Numbered from the stretch's first letter, positions 797-12,235 are shown. The stretch is DNA of 12,766 bases from a plasmid (GCF_056746865.1 NZ_JBWKMP010000007.1); one strand, 5' to 3'. The notes: generated from the sequence alone by a model not told the origin. Numbers and translations are program-made.

Positions 797-1153
797 ATGG
801 GGGTAATGATACCGATGAAACGCGAGAGGATGCTCACGATACGGGTTACTGATGATGAACATGCCCGGTTACTGGAACGCTGTGAGGGTAAACAACTGGC
901 GGTATGGATGCGGCGGGTCTGCCTGGGGGAGCCGGTTGCCCGTTCCGGGAAGCTGCCGACACTGGCACCGCCGTTACTGCGTCAGCTGGCCGCCATCGGG
1001 AATAACCTGAATCAGACCGCGAGGAAGGTGAACAGCGGGCAGTGGTCTTCCGGTGATCGGGTTCAGGTGGTGGCCGCACTGATGGCCATCGGGGATGAGC
1101 TGCGCCGGCTGCGTCTGGCCGTCAGGGAACAGGGGGCGCGGGATGATAGTTAA
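797..1153 (+). CDS. mbeC: Mobilisation accessory protein MbeC (MobC-like relaxosome component)
   Basis: 118-aa ORF immediately upstream of and overlapping the relaxase gene, in the ColE1 mbeC position. Start codon uncertain (ATG at 797, 806 or 815); purine-rich stretch aagggggga upstream. Confidence 0.75.
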   Translation: MGVMIPMKRERMLTIRVTDDEHARLLERCEGKQLAVWMRRVCLGEPVARSGKLPTLAPPLLRQLAAIGNNLNQTARKVNSGQWSSGDRVQVVAALMAIGDELRRLRLAVREQGARDDS

Positions 1154-2717
1154 ATTTCATGCCAGGGGAAAAGGTGGTGGCAGTGGTCCGGTTGATTACC
1201 TGCTGGGGAGGGAGCGTAACCGCGAAGGCGCAACGGTGCTTCAGGGTAATCCGGAAGAAGTCCGGGAACTCATCGATGCCACGCCATTTGCGAAGAAATA
1301 CACGTCAGGCGTTCTGTCGTTCGCGGAGAAGGAGTTGCCGCCGGGAGGACGTGAAAAAGTGATGGCGAGCTTTGAGCGCGTACTGATGCCAGGTCTCGAA
1401 AAGAATCAGTACAGCATCCTGTGGGTGGAGCACCAGGACAAGGGACGGCTTGAGCTGAATTTTGTCATTCCGAACATGGAGCTACAGACCGGAAAACGTC
1501 TCCAGCCGTACTACGACCGGGCAGACAGGCCGAGAATTGATGCCTGGCAGACGCTGGTGAATCACCATTACGGGCTGCATGACCCCAACGCCCCGGAGAA
1601 CCGCCGGATACTGACTCTCTCTGATAACCTGCCGGAAACGAAACAGGCGCTTGCTGAGAGCGTCACACGCGGGATAGACGCTCTTTATCATGTAGGGGAG
1701 ATAAAAGGCCGTCAGGATGTGATTCAGGCGCTCACAGAGGCGGGGCTTGAAGTGGTCAGGGTGACGCGAAGCAGCATCAGCATTGCAGACCCGAACGGCG
1801 GGAAGAATATCAGGCTGAAAGGAGCGTTTTATGAGCAATCTTTTACAGACGGGCGCGGAGTTCGAGAAAAAGCTGAAAGAGAGAGCCGAATCTACAGAGA
1901 AAGTGCTGAACAACGAGTTCAGGAGGCTCGGCGAATCTGTAAGCGAGGTTGTGACATCAAACGAGACGAAAATCAGAGACGCTATAGCCCTGTTCACAGC
2001 CTCGACAGAGGAATCGCTGGAGAAACACCGGGAAGGGGTGAAAGAGGCGATGAGGCAGCACAGGAAGGACGTGTTAAAGCTGGCAGGGAATACGGGCATG
2101 ATGTTACTGGGGATAGTCTTTCTCCTGTTTACCGCGAGTGGCGGGACGCTCTGGTATCTTGGCGGGAGGATACAGGCGAACCTGGAAGATATCAGGAAGC
2201 AGGAAGAGACATTGCAGAAACTGAACGCGAAGACATGGGGCGTGGAGTTCGTGCAGGACGGGAACAGGAAATTTCTGGTCCTTCCGTACGGGAAATCAGC
2301 AGAGGTGATTCCCTTTCAGGGGAAAGAGTGGGTACATCTGAAGGAGTGACACAGAGTGACAGAGCTGGAAACACATTTGCTGAACGCCTTAGAGCAGCTG
2401 CAACAGGACTATATGCAGCGGCTGAACGAATGGGAGAGCGCCTTCGTGGAATTGCAGAAGATGTTTTCGCTTACGCAACGGGACAACGCGATGCTGAACG
2501 AGCGGGTCATGCAGTTGAGTCAGCAGGTGCAGCACTTGAGCGAGCAGACAGAACACTTGAGCGAGCAGACAGAACACTTGAGCCAGTTATACAGCGAGAG
2601 CAGGAGATAAGGGACGAACTACTGATACAGGAACGTGAACATGAGCTATTCCTAGAGCGTGAGCGCCATCTGGAAATACAGGAACGGACACTGGATGGCC
2701 CGTCGCTGGGATGGTAA
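1143..2717 (+). CDS. mbeA: ColE1-type relaxase MbeA (MobA, HEN/MOB-P family)
   Basis: 524-aa ORF starting MIVKFHARGKGGGSGPVDYLLG with internal ATG at 1143, matching ColE1 MbeA from memory. Contains WVEHQDKGRLELNFV region. Overlaps mbeC 3' end by 11 nt. Confidence 0.9.
   Translation: MIVKFHARGKGGGSGPVDYLLGRERNREGATVLQGNPEEVRELIDATPFAKKYTSGVLSFAEKELPPGGREKVMASFERVLMPGLEKNQYSILWVEHQDKGRLELNFVIPNMELQTGKRLQPYYDRADRPRIDAWQTLVNHHYGLHDPNAPENRRILTLSDNLPETKQALAESVTRGIDALYHVGEIKGRQDVIQALTEAGLEVVRVTRSSISIADPNGGKNIRLKGAFYEQSFTDGRGVREKAERESRIYRESAEQRVQEARRICKRGCDIKRDENQRRYSPVHSLDRGIAGETPGRGERGDEAAQEGRVKAGREYGHDVTGDSLSPVYREWRDALVSWREDTGEPGRYQEAGRDIAETEREDMGRGVRAGREQEISGPSVREISRGDSLSGERVGTSEGVTQSDRAGNTFAERLRAAATGLYAAAERMGERLRGIAEDVFAYATGQRDAERAGHAVESAGAALERADRTLERADRTLEPVIQREQEIRDELLIQEREHELFLERERHLEIQERTLDGPSLGW
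1831..2349 (+). CDS. mbeB: Mobilisation protein MbeB, encoded in the +1 frame inside mbeA
   Basis: 172-aa ORF fully nested in mbeA in another frame, with a hydrophobic segment (MMLLGIVFLLFTASGGTLWYL). Same size and position as ColE1 MbeB as I recall it. Confidence 0.7.
   Translation: MSNLLQTGAEFEKKLKERAESTEKVLNNEFRRLGESVSEVVTSNETKIRDAIALFTASTEESLEKHREGVKEAMRQHRKDVLKLAGNTGMMLLGIVFLLFTASGGTLWYLGGRIQANLEDIRKQEETLQKLNAKTWGVEFVQDGNRKFLVLPYGKSAEVIPFQGKEWVHLKE
2356..2610 (+). CDS. mbeD: Mobilisation protein MbeD (about 9 kDa), nested in the 3' part of mbeA; GTG start
   Basis: 84-codon ORF beginning with GTG at 2356 directly after the mbeB stop (2347-2349). Coiled-coil-like sequence. Position and size match ColE1 mbeD from memory. 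Confidence 0.55.
   Translation: MTELETHLLNALEQLQQDYMQRLNEWESAFVELQKMFSLTQRDNAMLNERVMQLSQQVQHLSEQTEHLSEQTEHLSQLYSESRR
2533..2583. repeat. Perfect 21-bp tandem duplication (cacttgagcgagcagacagaa x2, plus 9-bp partial third copy) inside overlapping mbeA/mbeD
   Basis: Direct reading: units at 2533-2553 and 2554-2574, partial at 2575-2583. In frame in both genes (ERADRTL x2 in MbeA, EQTEHLS x2 in MbeD). Confidence 0.9.
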
Positions 2718-4421: not shown

Positions 4422-4490
4422 ATCTGGTACGCCGTAAAACCCGGTCCTTCAGGGCGTAGAGGATGTCAAAAATTTCTTCGAAAGGTAATA

Positions 4491-4721
4491 CCCGGTATCC
4501 CGCTCATGCTGGCGAACCCAGACACGCAGGGTCTCTGGCGTACAGCCAATCTTTGGAGCAATGGAACAAATTGCCGCCCATTGTGAGTCATATTCGCCCT
4601 GGCTTTCCAGAACCATACGAACTGCCCGTTGACGGACTTCGGGGGAAAAACGAGTATTTTTAGTCATCCTGTTTACATCTTTCTCAGGAAGTTTAGTCTC
4701 CAGGATTTCCGGGGCGGTTCA
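4491..4721 (-). mobile_element. 5' remnant of an IS3-family element (IS629/IS1203-like): terminal inverted repeat plus the first 59 codons of orfA, truncated
   Basis: Minus-strand ORF 4449..4667 begins [59 protein letters not shown], which matches IS629-type OrfA from memory, then diverges into an unrelated 13-aa tail. The reverse complement of 4690-4721 is the IS-end-like tgaaccgccccggaaatcctggagactaaac. Confidence 0.7.
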
Positions 4722-6392: not shown

Positions 6393-7456
6393 ATGGAAAC
6401 AGCTGTAGCGTACTATAAAGATGGTGTTCCTTATGATGATAAGGGGCAGGTAATCATTACTCTTTTGAATGGTAATCCAGACGGGAGTGGCTCTGGCGGC
6501 GGTGGTGGAACTGGAGGTAGCAAAAGTGAAAGTTCTGCAGCCATTCATGCCACAGCTAAATGGTCTACTGCTCAATTGAAGAAAACGCAGGCAGAACAGG
6601 CTGCCCGGGCAAAAGCTGCCGCAGAAGCACAGGCTAAAGCAAAAGCAAACCGGGATGCGCTGACTCAACATCTGAAGGATATTGTGAATGAGGCGCTTCG
6701 TCATAATTCCACTCATCCGGAGGTTATTGACCTGGCTCATGCCAATAATGCAGCGATGCAGGCAGAAGCAGAGCGGTTGCGCCTTGCAAAAGCAGAAGAA
6801 AAAGCCCGTAAAGAAGCGGAAGCTGCGGAAAAGGCTTTTCAGGAGGCAGAACAACGACGCAAAGAGATAGAGAAGGAGCAGGCTGAAACAGAACGCCAGT
6901 TGAAACTGGCTGAAGCTGAAGAGAAACGGCTGGCAGCATTGAATGAAGAGGCCCGGGCAGTGGAGGTGGCACAAAAAAATCTTGCTGCTGCACAATCTGA
7001 GCTGGCGAAAGTGGATGAAGAGATTAAGACTCTCAATACCCGTTTAAGCTCCAGTATTCATGCCCGTGATGCAGAAATGAATACGCTGTCCGGAAAACGA
7101 AATGAGCTGGCTCAGGCATCTGCTAAATATAAGGAACTTGATGAACTGGTCAAAAAATTGTCACCAAGAGCTAATGATCCGCTTCAGAGTCGTCCTTTTT
7201 TCTATGCCACCAGTCGACGGACGGGAGCCGGTAAGATTATGGAGGAAAACAAAAACAGGTAACAGCATCAGAAACGCGTATTAACCAACTTAATGCTGAG
7301 ATAAATGGAATTCAGGGGGCTATGTCTCAGGCTAATAATAATCGTAATACAGCTGTTTTACGTGTTCATGAATCTGAAGAAAATTTGAAAACAGCGCAGA
7401 CTAATCTCCTGAACTCGCAGATTAAGGATGCTGTGGATGCAACAGTTAGCTTTTAT
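6393..7456 (+). pseudogene. cea: Colicin E1-type gene, 5' part (translocation and receptor-binding domains), with a 1-nt frameshift in an A-run (7246-7249) and truncated by the IS21-family insertion at 7456/7457
   Basis: METAVAYYKDGVPYDDKGQVIITLLNGNPDGSGSGGGGG... matches colicin E1 from memory. Frame 0 stops at 7260-7262; the colicin-like reading continues in the -1 frame (VTASETRIN...DAVDATVSFY) to 7456. Confidence 0.85.
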
Positions 7457-7658
7457 TGCAAAATGGCATCTGAATCGATCGCAGTTTGGCATTCGAATCG
7501 ATCATGATTTGGCATCCATCTCCGATCACAGTTTGGCATCACAATCGATCACGATTTGGCATGCTTCCGATCATTGATTGGCATCCTGCCAGTCACTCCG
7601 GGAATTAACTCTTTTCACCACAGTCTCCATTGCCGTGTTTAAACCAGTGGAGACGTCA

Positions 7659-9224
7659 ATGTCCAGAAAGAGAAAATCCAGGAGCACTATGGAAACCTGT
7701 TTTAAGATTCTTCAGCTCAAGTTCGACAAGAAGCTGACTAACCGTTGTATCGGACTGACGTTACACATCAGCGCCTCAACCGTTTTTGAGGTTCTTGCCC
7801 GCTTCAAAGCCTCTTCTCTGTCATGGCCATTACCTGCTGATATATCCCATGACACGCTGGAGAAACTCATTTTTCCGCCCAAAGACACCTTTGCATCAGA
7901 GCTTGTAATGCCTGACATGTTGTACCTCGATACGGAAATGAGAAAACCAGGTGTGACGCGGCAACTGTTGTGGATGGAATACAAGGCACAGGCGGGTAAC
8001 AAAGCGATGGGATACTCGCACTTCTGCCGTTGCTACCGGGAGTGGAAAAAAACGCGACGTCTCTCCATGCGCCAGGAGCATCGTGCCGGCGAAAAGCTTT
8101 TTATCGACTTCTGTGGTCCTACGGTTCCTGTTATTAATCCGGACACCGGTGAGATACGCCGCGTGGCAATCTTCGTGGCCGTAATGGGGGCGTCCAACTA
8201 TACCTACGTTGAAGCGTGCGAAGGTCAGGACATGATGTCATGGTTAAATGCCCACAGCCGTTGCCTGACCTTCCTGGGCGGCGTACCGAAGCTGCTCATC
8301 CCCGATAACCTCAGAAGCGCAGTGAAAAAGGCCGATCGATATGAGCCTGTCATCAACGACAGTTATCAGGCACTGGCTGAGCACTATGGCACGGTTATCA
8401 TCCCGGCCCGACCACGCAAACCTAAAGATAAACCAAAAGCAGAAAACGGCGTCCTCATCGTCGAACGATGGCTTCTTGCCCGCATCCGTAATGAAACCTT
8501 CCACACGCTCAGGGCGCTGAATGCGCGCCTTAGGGAGTTACTGACAGACATGAATAACCGGCCAATGAAGGGGTACGGCAATCAAACCCGTGCAGAACGC
8601 TTCCGCATACTGGATGCGCCAGCACTCTCTCCGCTGCCTCTGGCACCTTATGAATACACGGAATACAAAGCTGTGAAGGTTGGCCCTGACTACCACGTTG
8701 AATATGCCCGTCACTGGTACTCCGTTCCACACGAACTGGTCGGTCAGCGTCTGTCACTGAAGGCGGGGCAGTCGGTGGTACAGCTCTGGCACAAGGGGCA
8801 GTGTGTGGCGCAACATCCGCGCAGCACACATGAATATAAACACACAACCAATCCGCTTCACATGCCAGAGCGCCACCGGCAGCACGGGACATGGACACCG
8901 GAACGCCTGATCGAGCAGGGAAAACGTACGGGCCCGTCCACAGGCCGGGTGGTTGAATCCATGCTGAAGGCAAAACCCCATCCGGAACTGGCTTATCGTG
9001 CAGTTCTGGGGCTGCTGGCACTTCAGAAAAAATACGGCCCGGAACGGCTGGAAAAGGCCTGTTACGTTGCCCTGCACTATAACGCCCCTGACAGACGCTT
9101 TATCGACAATCTGCTGCGTCACCATCGGGAGAACCTGGAGCTTCCATTATCCCGCCAGGGCGAACAACATCCGGCATATGCTTCAGAGCATGAAAACCTG
9201 CGTGGTCCGGGCTACTACCACTGA
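7659..9224 (+). CDS. istA: IS21-family transposase IstA (521 aa)
   Basis: Long ORF with a DDE-type integrase core and the IstA-typical layout; followed 16 nt later by istB. ATG at 7659 preceded by ggag. Confidence 0.85.
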   Translation: MSRKRKSRSTMETCFKILQLKFDKKLTNRCIGLTLHISASTVFEVLARFKASSLSWPLPADISHDTLEKLIFPPKDTFASELVMPDMLYLDTEMRKPGVTRQLLWMEYKAQAGNKAMGYSHFCRCYREWKKTRRLSMRQEHRAGEKLFIDFCGPTVPVINPDTGEIRRVAIFVAVMGASNYTYVEACEGQDMMSWLNAHSRCLTFLGGVPKLLIPDNLRSAVKKADRYEPVINDSYQALAEHYGTVIIPARPRKPKDKPKAENGVLIVERWLLARIRNETFHTLRALNARLRELLTDMNNRPMKGYGNQTRAERFRILDAPALSPLPLAPYEYTEYKAVKVGPDYHVEYARHWYSVPHELVGQRLSLKAGQSVVQLWHKGQCVAQHPRSTHEYKHTTNPLHMPERHRQHGTWTPERLIEQGKRTGPSTGRVVESMLKAKPHPELAYRAVLGLLALQKKYGPERLEKACYVALHYNAPDRRFIDNLLRHHRENLELPLSRQGEQHPAYASEHENLRGPGYYH

Positions 9225-9240
9225 CAGAAGGAACAACAGT

Positions 9241-9996
9241 ATGAGTGATAACCTGTTAAACAAACTGACCCAACTGAAACTCCCGGCGATGGCCGGGAGC
9301 CTGATACGGCAGCGGGAAACGCCTCAGACCTACGACGAACTGTCGTTCGAGGAAAGGCTGACGCTGCTGGTTGATGACGAGCTTCTGAGCAGGGAAAACA
9401 GCCGTGTGGCACGGTTGAGAAAAAATGCCGGCCTGAAATACCAGGCAACACCGGAAGGGCTGCGCTATCCGGCCTCAAGAGGTCTGCGGGCTGAACAGAT
9501 GAGAGAACTGCTGAACGGCCACTACATAACCCACAGGAAAAACCTGCTGATAACCGGTCCGACAGGATGTGGCAAGAGCTGGATAGCCAATGCGCTGGGC
9601 GAACAGGCATGTCGACAGAAACACAGCGTCCGGTACTGTAGAACCGGGCGATTACTGGAACAACTGGCTCAGGGACGTGTTGATGGCAGCTGGCTGAAAT
9701 ATCTGAAACAGTTGCAAAAAATACAGGTTCTAATCCTGGACGATCTGGGGCTGGAACAGTTAAGTAACGCCCAGTGTAATGACCTTCTGGAGCTCATAGA
9801 GGATCGTTACGGACAAAGCAGCACGATAGTGGTAAGCCAGTTCCCGGTAGATAAATGGCATGGTCTGATGGAGAACCCAACAACAGCAGATGCCATCCTG
9901 GACAGACTGGTACATAACTCACACCGGGTGGTCCTTCAGGGAGAGTCACTGAGGAAAAATCCCCCGGTAGTGGAAAGCAGCGAAAAAACGCGTTAA
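9241..9996 (+). CDS. istB: IS21-family helper ATPase IstB (251 aa)
   Basis: Walker A GPTGCGKS and Walker B VLILDDLG motifs. RBS gaagga upstream of the ATG at 9241. Confidence 0.9.
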   Translation: MSDNLLNKLTQLKLPAMAGSLIRQRETPQTYDELSFEERLTLLVDDELLSRENSRVARLRKNAGLKYQATPEGLRYPASRGLRAEQMRELLNGHYITHRKNLLITGPTGCGKSWIANALGEQACRQKHSVRYCRTGRLLEQLAQGRVDGSWLKYLKQLQKIQVLILDDLGLEQLSNAQCNDLLELIEDRYGQSSTIVVSQFPVDKWHGLMENPTTADAILDRLVHNSHRVVLQGESLRKNPPVVESSEKTR

Positions 9997-10095
9997 AAAG
10001 CGGTAGAAAAAGTTAAGTTCCCGGTTGATCGAATGGATGCGAATCGCTGATCGGACTTCGATGCCAATCCGTGATCGAATAGAGCGGAATACGCA

Positions 10096-10593
10096 CTTTT
10101 ATCAAACGCTATCTGAAAAATATGGTGAAAAATATTCAAAAATGGCACAGGAACTTGCTGATAAGTCTAAAGGTAAGAAAATCAGCAATGTGAATGAAGC
10201 TCTAGCTGCTTTTGAAAAATACAAGGATGTTTTAAATAAGAAATTCAGCAAAGCAGACCGTGATGCGATTTTCAATGCACTGGAATCGGTTAAGTATGAA
10301 GACTGGGCTAAGCATTTAGATCAGTTTGCTAAGTACTTGAAGATTACGGGACATGTTTCTTTTGGATATGATGTGGTATCTGATATCCTAAAAATTAAGG
10401 ATACAGGTGACTGGAAGCCACTATTTCTTACATTAGAGAAGAAAACTGTAGATGCTGGAGTTAGTTATATTGTTTTAGTGTGCTTGCTGGAACTACATTA
10501 GGTATCTGGGGGATTGCTATTGTTACAGGCATTCTATGTGCCTTTATTGACAAGAATAAACTTAATACTATAAATGATGTGTTGGGTATTTAA
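10096..10593 (+). pseudogene. cea: Colicin E1-type gene, 3' part (pore-forming domain), carrying a roughly 10-nt deletion/frameshift near 10473 in the hydrophobic helical hairpin
   Basis: [28 protein letters not shown]...[20 protein letters not shown] matches the colicin E1 channel domain from memory. Frame stops at 10499-10501; the remaining C-terminus ([35 protein letters not shown]) is in another frame ending at 10591-10593. Confidence 0.8.

Positions 10594-11040: not shown

Positions 11041-12235
<1,195 letters not shown>

Follow-up and report, generated by a model that had tools for sequence, protein, structure and literature searches.

Comparison of the mobilisation regions of ColE1-type plasmids suggests that the perfect 21-bp tandem array in the mbeA/mbeD overlap of one mobilisable colicin plasmid very probably represents a recent slipped-strand expansion, and that this expansion is probably near-neutral. 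As a slipped-strand tandem-repeat allele that stays in frame in known genes, the array itself is ordinary. The modest addition that can be made from the alleles compared here is a recurrent heptad polymorphism of one to four copies, which is read in two overlapping frames and is present family-wide in the ColE1 family. An in-frame slippage site is hence situated in DNA that codes in two frames, within a mobilisation module that is very common. A literature search on mbeA/mbeD (covering ColE1, entry exclusion, the C-terminal region and duplication) did not recover a description of this polymorphism.

The array and the mobilisation module that contains it

The window, by which we mean the whole 12,766-bp stretch of plasmid DNA that was analysed, has ends that directly adjoin each other in the 8899-bp plasmid NZ_CP128975.1, implying that it represents a complete circular plasmid. 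It can be described as an 8.9-kb colicin plasmid that has acquired two insertions, namely an IS21-family element and an IS5-like element. When these insertions and the 21-bp duplication are set aside, the differences from NZ_CP128975.1 are limited to two SNPs and an additional G within a G-run. More generally, the window shares the same repeat unit and 99.7% identity over the common 8.9 kb with the 8.9-kb E. coli colicin plasmids (such as NZ_CP128975.1, pSMS35_8, NC_010485.1, and their relatives), whereas these carry a single copy of the unit and the window carries two copies in addition to the two insertions.

The organization of the module is that of ColE1 (NC_001371), with mobC upstream of mbeA, and with the latter enclosing mbeB and mbeD in another frame, as annotated in ColE1 and its relatives (Table 1). 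As in the ColE1-type region, the Pfam Relaxase, MbeB_N, MbeD_MobD and MobC profiles all find their matches here. The MbeA protein matches PF03432, the MobA/VirD2-like relaxase nuclease domain, with 30.8 bits (cut-off 24.6), and shows 92% identity with 100% query cover to 517-aa clusters named 'plasmid mobilization relaxase MbeA'. In an alignment of 41 sequences with the window protein as the first row, Y19, H97, E104 and N106 form invariant columns; we take these to be the catalytic tyrosine and the metal-binding trio, in the numbering after Varsaki 2003. The metal-binding trio of ColE1 MbeA is His-Glu-Asn (PMC3297438). The nested MbeD protein is recovered by its own profile, PF04899, covering profile positions 1-69 of 70 (E=3.9e-34, 117 bits). 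The third gene of the nested set, mbeB, is untouched by the duplication and is annotated at the equivalent position in the relatives.

Table 1. Genes of the mobilisation module and components of the repeat array in the window
Feature	Coordinates	Strand	Basis
mobC/mbeC, relaxosome accessory gene upstream of mbeA	797..1153	+	Pfam PF05713 MobC and PF21983 NikA-like; annotated MobC in L002
mbeA, ColE1-type relaxase, 524 aa	1143..2717	+	ORF; Pfam PF03432 at residues 51-127
mbeB, 172 aa, lying inside mbeA in a different frame	1831..2349	+	ORF; Pfam PF04837 MbeB_N
mbeD, 84 aa from a GTG start, lying inside mbeA in a different frame	2356..2610	+	ORF; Pfam PF04899 MbeD_MobD
Older diverged 21-bp unit CAGTTGAGTCAGCAGGTGCAG, same register as the array	2512..2532	+	By-eye comparison
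Period-21 tandem array, perfect, 2.43 copies	2533..2583	+	Tandem Repeats Finder and direct reading
Array copy 1	2533-2553	+	Direct reading of sequence
Array copy 2	2554-2574	+	Direct reading of sequence
Array partial third copy, 9 bp	2575-2583	+	Direct reading of sequence

Tandem Repeats Finder (TRF) recovers the array over its full extent with a period of 21, 2.4 copies, 100% matches, 0 indels and a score of 102, and reports the repeat unit as CACTTGAGCGAGCAGACAGAA. Direct reading gives the same picture, with the region consisting of CACTTGAGCGAGCAGACAGAA CACTTGAGCGAGCAGACAGAA CACTTGAGC, that is, of perfect head-to-tail copies of the kind seen in VNTR-type repeats. In a self-match scan over lags of 4-500, the array emerges as the sole perfect self-match of at least 14 bases in the whole window, with 30 positions matched at lag 21, and approximately 6e-12 such runs are expected by chance given the base composition. 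The array is therefore real and lies well beyond chance.

In the MbeA frame the array reads ALERADRTLERADRTLEP, corresponding to residues 464-481, and the added residues are ERADRTL. In the MbeD frame it reads HLSEQTEHLSEQTEHLSQ, corresponding to residues 60-76, where exactly one heptad (LSEQTEH) has been added. The CTTGAG core of the unit specifies a leucine in both frames, as CTT in mbeA and as TTG in mbeD. Given that the 21-bp unit amounts to seven codons, both overlapping frames stay open. TRF, direct reading and the ORFs thus bear out the original prediction of a perfect in-frame 21-bp duplication read in two frames, in mbeA and in mbeD, together with its doubling of seven residues in each protein. 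The further proposal that this duplication accounts for an MbeA of 524 aa, as against about 517 aa in ColE1, turns out to be exact: a single unit goes with an MbeA of 517 aa and an MbeD of 77 aa in ColE1, and two units go with 524 and 84 aa respectively in the window. The units of the two plasmids also differ, being of the AG type (MbeD heptad LSEQTER) in ColE1 and of the AA type (LSEQTEH) in the window.

Immediately upstream of the array, and in the same register, lies an older and diverged version of the unit, which is identical to the array unit at 13 of 21 positions and encodes the MbeD heptad QLSQQVQ. In a homologous locus (L001), TRF calls a period-21 array at 2445-2484, which matches the region of this diverged unit. 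A cis-acting DNA element at the array, such as an iteron or a binding site, is unsupported, and the two coding frames account for the conservation seen here. Iteron-like repeats occur in the window solely at 7464-7585, where they belong to the end of the IS21-family element. A minus-strand ORF overlapping the array (2389-2577, 62 aa) is likewise unsupported and is taken to be spurious.

Copy-number variation across the ColE1 family

The array in family members can be written as the pattern GCA(CTTGAGCGAGCRGACAGAACR){n}CTTGAGCCAG, and its copy number was surveyed with a 131-bp probe, using the geometry of the BLAST alignments (one-piece versus gapped) in the matches listed. Among these, 34 two-copy records were found in PLSDB, where 785 records had a match, and 20 in the complete E. 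coli genomes of RefSeq, where 651 had a match. Two-copy alleles hence make up approximately 3-4% of the ColE1-family records, and about 96% have one copy, among the matches listed. In intact mobilisation regions, two-copy alleles occur in E. coli, E. fergusonii, Shigella flexneri, Salmonella enterica and Klebsiella pneumoniae, and five metagenome contigs contain at least two copies, all of the AG or GG type. Records with the 8.9-kb backbone of the window and one copy number 15 in PLSDB and at least 18 in RefSeq complete genomes; in these the probe aligns over 110 of its 131 bp, with one unit missing and the remainder identical. The two-copy allele of the AA type found no one-piece 100% match to the 131-bp probe among the matches listed from PLSDB and RefSeq complete E. 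coli. Outside the window it was recovered once, through an exact look-up of the 84-aa MbeD protein (HGC2369989.1), which is identical to that of the window and is encoded by a 3655-bp draft contig with two copies (L006, GCA_044690825.1). This contig differs from the window by five SNPs and two indels, and the two have no derived SNP in common.

Closely related plasmids that differ in copy number are seen in more than one lineage. On the AA backbone, one copy is present in L002, two in the window and in L006, and three in L003, an 8941-bp contig with an MbeD of 91 aa, all these being at most five SNPs apart. A comparable series is found in the ColE1 clade with its AG unit, in which plasmids of 6647 bp (L023), 6668 bp (L015) and 6689 bp (L005) have one, two and three copies respectively, and are 1-3 SNPs apart over approximately 4.8 kb. 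The largest number, four copies, occurs in a Salmonella Schwarzengrund plasmid (NZ_CP130093.1, L028). The third version of the unit, GG (LSERTER), is present as a single copy in ColJs and as two copies in pSTEC310_3, pC5107 and two metagenome contigs; single-copy alleles are thus known for the AA, AG and GG units alike. The natural ColE1 plasmids of 6668 bp (for example NZ_AP024129.1) and pEC158 (NC_019076.1) resemble the window in having the site duplicated, with an MbeA of 524 aa and an MbeD of 84 aa, but their units are AG (LSEQTER twice) and not AA (LSEQTEH twice), and approximately 66-68 of 1552 flank columns differ.

The unit variant is always that of the lineage itself, namely AA in the clade of the window, AG in the ColE1 clade and GG elsewhere. 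Within any one plasmid the copies are identical, the exception being L005, in which the middle unit differs by one A>G substitution. When 1.5 kb of flanking DNA is placed in a neighbour-joining tree, multi-copy alleles are dispersed among single-copy ones, with the former over-represented as the loci compared were picked for multi-copy alleles. The near-identity of the copies and their lineage-specific character, taken together with this dispersal, indicate that expansion has been recurrent rather than ancestral. Such a pattern would be predicted if the array had expanded and contracted repeatedly, independently and in recent times, and would not be predicted by a single ancestral duplication. 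The duplication in the window is, on this comparative evidence, not a one-off event and belongs to a polymorphism that recurs across the ColE1-type plasmids.

The lengths of MbeD follow the same logic, falling at 70, 77, 84, 91 and 98 aa, in steps of whole heptads. The 70-aa variant (P0070) is without exactly one older heptad (VMQLSQQ) situated just upstream of the array, and two distant homologues (P0078 and P0099) possess an extra diverged heptad at the array site. The C-terminal part of MbeD as a whole thus seems to have been built up, in the course of time, by one 21-bp duplication after another.

Probable slipped-strand expansion and competing explanations

In the Levinson and Gutman model, slipped-strand mispairing gives rise to deletions and duplications between short direct repeats. 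A substrate of this type is present in the one-copy AA allele of L002, which has the form GCA-CACTTGAGC-GAGCAGACAGAA-CACTTGAGC-CAG, with the 9-bp direct repeat CACTTGAGC occurring twice, 21 bp apart; the corresponding direct repeat in the AG and GG lineages is 7 bp. These 9-bp repeats in the nearest one-copy relatives lend support to the replication slippage that had been proposed for the window. In the one-copy allele, the nascent strand would misalign between the two 9-mers, resulting in duplication of the 21 bp between them. With its 30 bp of perfect self-homology, the 2.4-copy array formed in this way could then undergo further expansion or contraction, and the site acts as a small VNTR with one, two, three or four copies in nature. 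We infer both slippage as the molecular event and the direction from one to two copies in the window plasmid, the latter on the basis of allele frequencies.

In several respects the array resembles the VNTR-type repeats of bacterial coiled-coil genes: the copies are head-to-tail, the short allele contains microhomology, a series of copy numbers exists, and the unit is a multiple of three that amounts to one heptad. It departs from the usual VNTR-type repeat in that its unit is read in two frames at once, with a leucine at every seventh residue in both. Nor is it a contingency repeat of the on/off type, which works through frameshifting.

The alternative that survives best, although it is improbable, holds that the two-copy state is ancestral, or contracted from three copies, and that the widespread one-copy state reflects repeated deletions. 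Contractions are indeed expected at arrays of this type, and a three-copy allele is found on the very backbone of the window (L003). The diverged additional heptads of P0078 and P0099 and the occurrence of two-copy AG alleles on fairly divergent backbones could also be accommodated by this explanation. Against it stands the great predominance of one-copy alleles among the matches listed, which include ColE1 and the near-identical 8.9-kb plasmids; the two-copy members of the family, which might have testified to an ancestral repeat, are AG or GG in type and dispersed. An old duplication would, moreover, need concerted evolution, given that the copies are identical (L005 apart) and specific to their lineages, and the consensus of the 41-sequence MbeA alignment contains a single unit. 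As regards contraction from three copies, it would involve the same mechanism as expansion from one and would give the same sequence, such that the two cannot be separated on these data.

Selection on copy number appears somewhat less probable still. Here the number of heptads would tune the coiled coil of MbeD, the C-terminal helix of MbeA, or both, thereby changing exclusion or compatibility with helper plasmids. In its strongest form, to which we attach an equally small likelihood, the array would be a selected, hypermutable 'heptad ruler' acting in both frames at once and giving altered exclusion specificity or coupling-protein compatibility. In its favour, every length variant consists of whole heptads in both frames, entry-exclusion activity has been ascribed to ColE1 mbeD (Yamada 1995, as cited in PMC2831885), and the C-terminus has been reported to be the variable part of MbeA (PMC6118388). 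However, only multiples of three keep both genes open and the DNA repeat itself sets the 21-bp period, with the result that whole heptads are expected in any case. Furthermore, multi-copy alleles are rare among the matches listed, at the frequency given above, and the records seen display no association with host or cargo. None of the observations calls for selection.

An artefact of assembly or sequencing in this particular record is very unlikely. Short tandem repeats can be assembled wrongly, and the listed PLSDB and RefSeq complete E. coli matches lack the AA two-copy allele; on the other hand, the identical allele is present in the independent assembly of L006, which differs at five other sites, two to four copies are found in many finished plasmids and in metagenome contigs, and the repeat is perfect and in frame. 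Import of the allele by recombination or gene conversion from a two-copy ColE1-type plasmid, the least probable of all, would be in keeping with the mosaic nature and frequent co-residence of ColE1-like plasmids (PMC2831885) and with the presence of two mobilisation regions in several census records, but it is rejected on the identity of the unit variant and the flanks. Every two-copy donor that PLSDB, RefSeq E. coli and the metagenomes yielded is AG or GG with different flanks, and in the window both units and flanks are those of its own AA lineage, no foreign SNPs being present near the array.

Predicted effect on MbeD and MbeA

Slipped-strand expansion as the probable origin of the array leaves the matter of its consequences for the two proteins. 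MbeD is predicted by AlphaFold (as a monomer, from a 26-sequence alignment) to form a single uninterrupted helix spanning residues 3-83, with a mean pLDDT of 96.6. A single a/d heptad register extends over its whole length and is unbroken through the duplication, with 16 of the 24 a/d positions being hydrophobic. On account of this predicted long helix and its unbroken register, the seven extra residues of MbeD are likely to constitute a conservative insertion, adding approximately two helical turns with no shift in register.

The model of MbeA is weak, with a mean pLDDT of 54. It nevertheless includes a predicted helix at residues 451-517, which comes after a long low-confidence segment (282-414) and contains the duplication, with pLDDT values of approximately 58-81 there, and is suggestive of a C-terminal helix around the repeat. 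The duplicated residues are distant from the N-terminal relaxase domain. The natural occurrence of two-copy alleles in the five enterobacterial species listed above suggests that the extra heptad is tolerated, and the duplication is most likely neutral, or nearly so, with respect to both mobilisation and entry exclusion, as far as the predicted structures indicate.

The series of natural alleles provides a ready set for probing the roles of the C-terminal helices of MbeA and MbeD, and the array, as a marker that evolves fast, could also be used to track small Col plasmids. For the interpretation of database entries, MbeA proteins of 517, 524, 531 and 538 aa and MbeD proteins of 70-98 aa are to be regarded as alleles of one locus, and not as other genes or annotation errors. 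By the same token, plasmids of 6647, 6668 and 6689 bp, or of 8899, 8920 and 8941 bp, can be one and the same plasmid.

Plasmid form and insertion elements

The first and last positions of the window (1 and 12766) map to the neighbouring positions 7290 and 7289 of NZ_CP128975.1, the colicin plasmid of near-identical backbone. As the ends adjoin there, the window represents a complete circular plasmid of 12,766 bp, which consists of a ColE1-like colicin backbone of 8.9 kb and two IS insertions (see table).

Coordinates and defining features of the mobile elements and private differences in the window
Feature	Position	Length	Basis or detail
IS21-family element	7457-10095	2639 bp	IstA-like and IstB-like ORFs, ends, target duplication
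IstA-like ORF	end at 9224		
IstB-like protein	9241-9996		PF01695 match, E=1e-60
Target duplication, IS21-family element	7450-7456 and 10096-10102	7 bp	CTTTTAT
Terminal multiple repeats, IS21-family element	7464-7585		TRF repeats of 23/47 bp
IS5-like element	11041-12235	1195 bp	transposase, terminal repeat, target duplication
DDE_Tnp_1 transposase	11073-12089		
Short ORF (- strand)	4449-4667		similar to IS3-family transposase N-terminus
SNP	167		private to window
C>T	1949		private to window
Extra G in G-run	about 3712	one G	private to window

The IS21-family element has TG...CA termini and lies within the gene for a colicin-like pore-former, and the IS5-like element, with the terminal repeat GGAAGGTGCGAA and the target duplication CTAA, lies within the colicin release (lysis) gene. 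Given these two sites of insertion, both the production and the release of the colicin appear to have been knocked out in this plasmid. The repeats detected by TRF near one end of the IS21-family element represent the terminal multiple repeats of the element itself and not iterons of the plasmid. The short ORF with similarity to an IS3-family transposase is a remnant residing in the backbone, rather than a new insertion, because NZ_CP128975.1 has an annotated partial transposase pseudogene at the equivalent site.

The three small differences were recognized by comparison with the near-identical plasmids. Of these, the C>T change is silent in MbeA (G269) and results in A40V in the overlapping MbeB.

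Annotation and length alleles of mbeA and mbeD

In ColE1-like plasmids, including the loci L002 and L012 among others, mbeA frequently has no gene-table entry or is flagged as a pseudogene, and it is absent from the PLSDB gene tables examined here; 487 mis-classified ORFs of this kind have been reported (PMC11229322). Hence, a census of MbeA lengths drawn from annotation alone would be unreliable.

Four copies of the 21-bp mbeA/mbeD unit, in its AG variant, are found at 405-488 of the locus L028 (NZ_CP130093.1, Salmonella Schwarzengrund, 4694 bp). The MbeD frame with this allele would be 98 aa; the RefSeq annotation has only a shorter CDS with an internal start. A three-copy allele is seen at 4496-4558 of L005, a colicin E1 plasmid contig of 6689 bp, with an A>G change in the middle unit, which thereby reads LGEQTER in MbeD. 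Given this change, the three-copy allele is old enough for a point mutation to have arisen within it.

Other MbeD homologues differ in length at sites nearby: a 70-aa version (P0070) is devoid of one older heptad, VMQLSQQ, and a 101-aa version (P0002) contains a 24-aa (72-bp) tandem duplication, with two copies of NEWENAFVELQKMFSLTQRDNAML, at a site further upstream.
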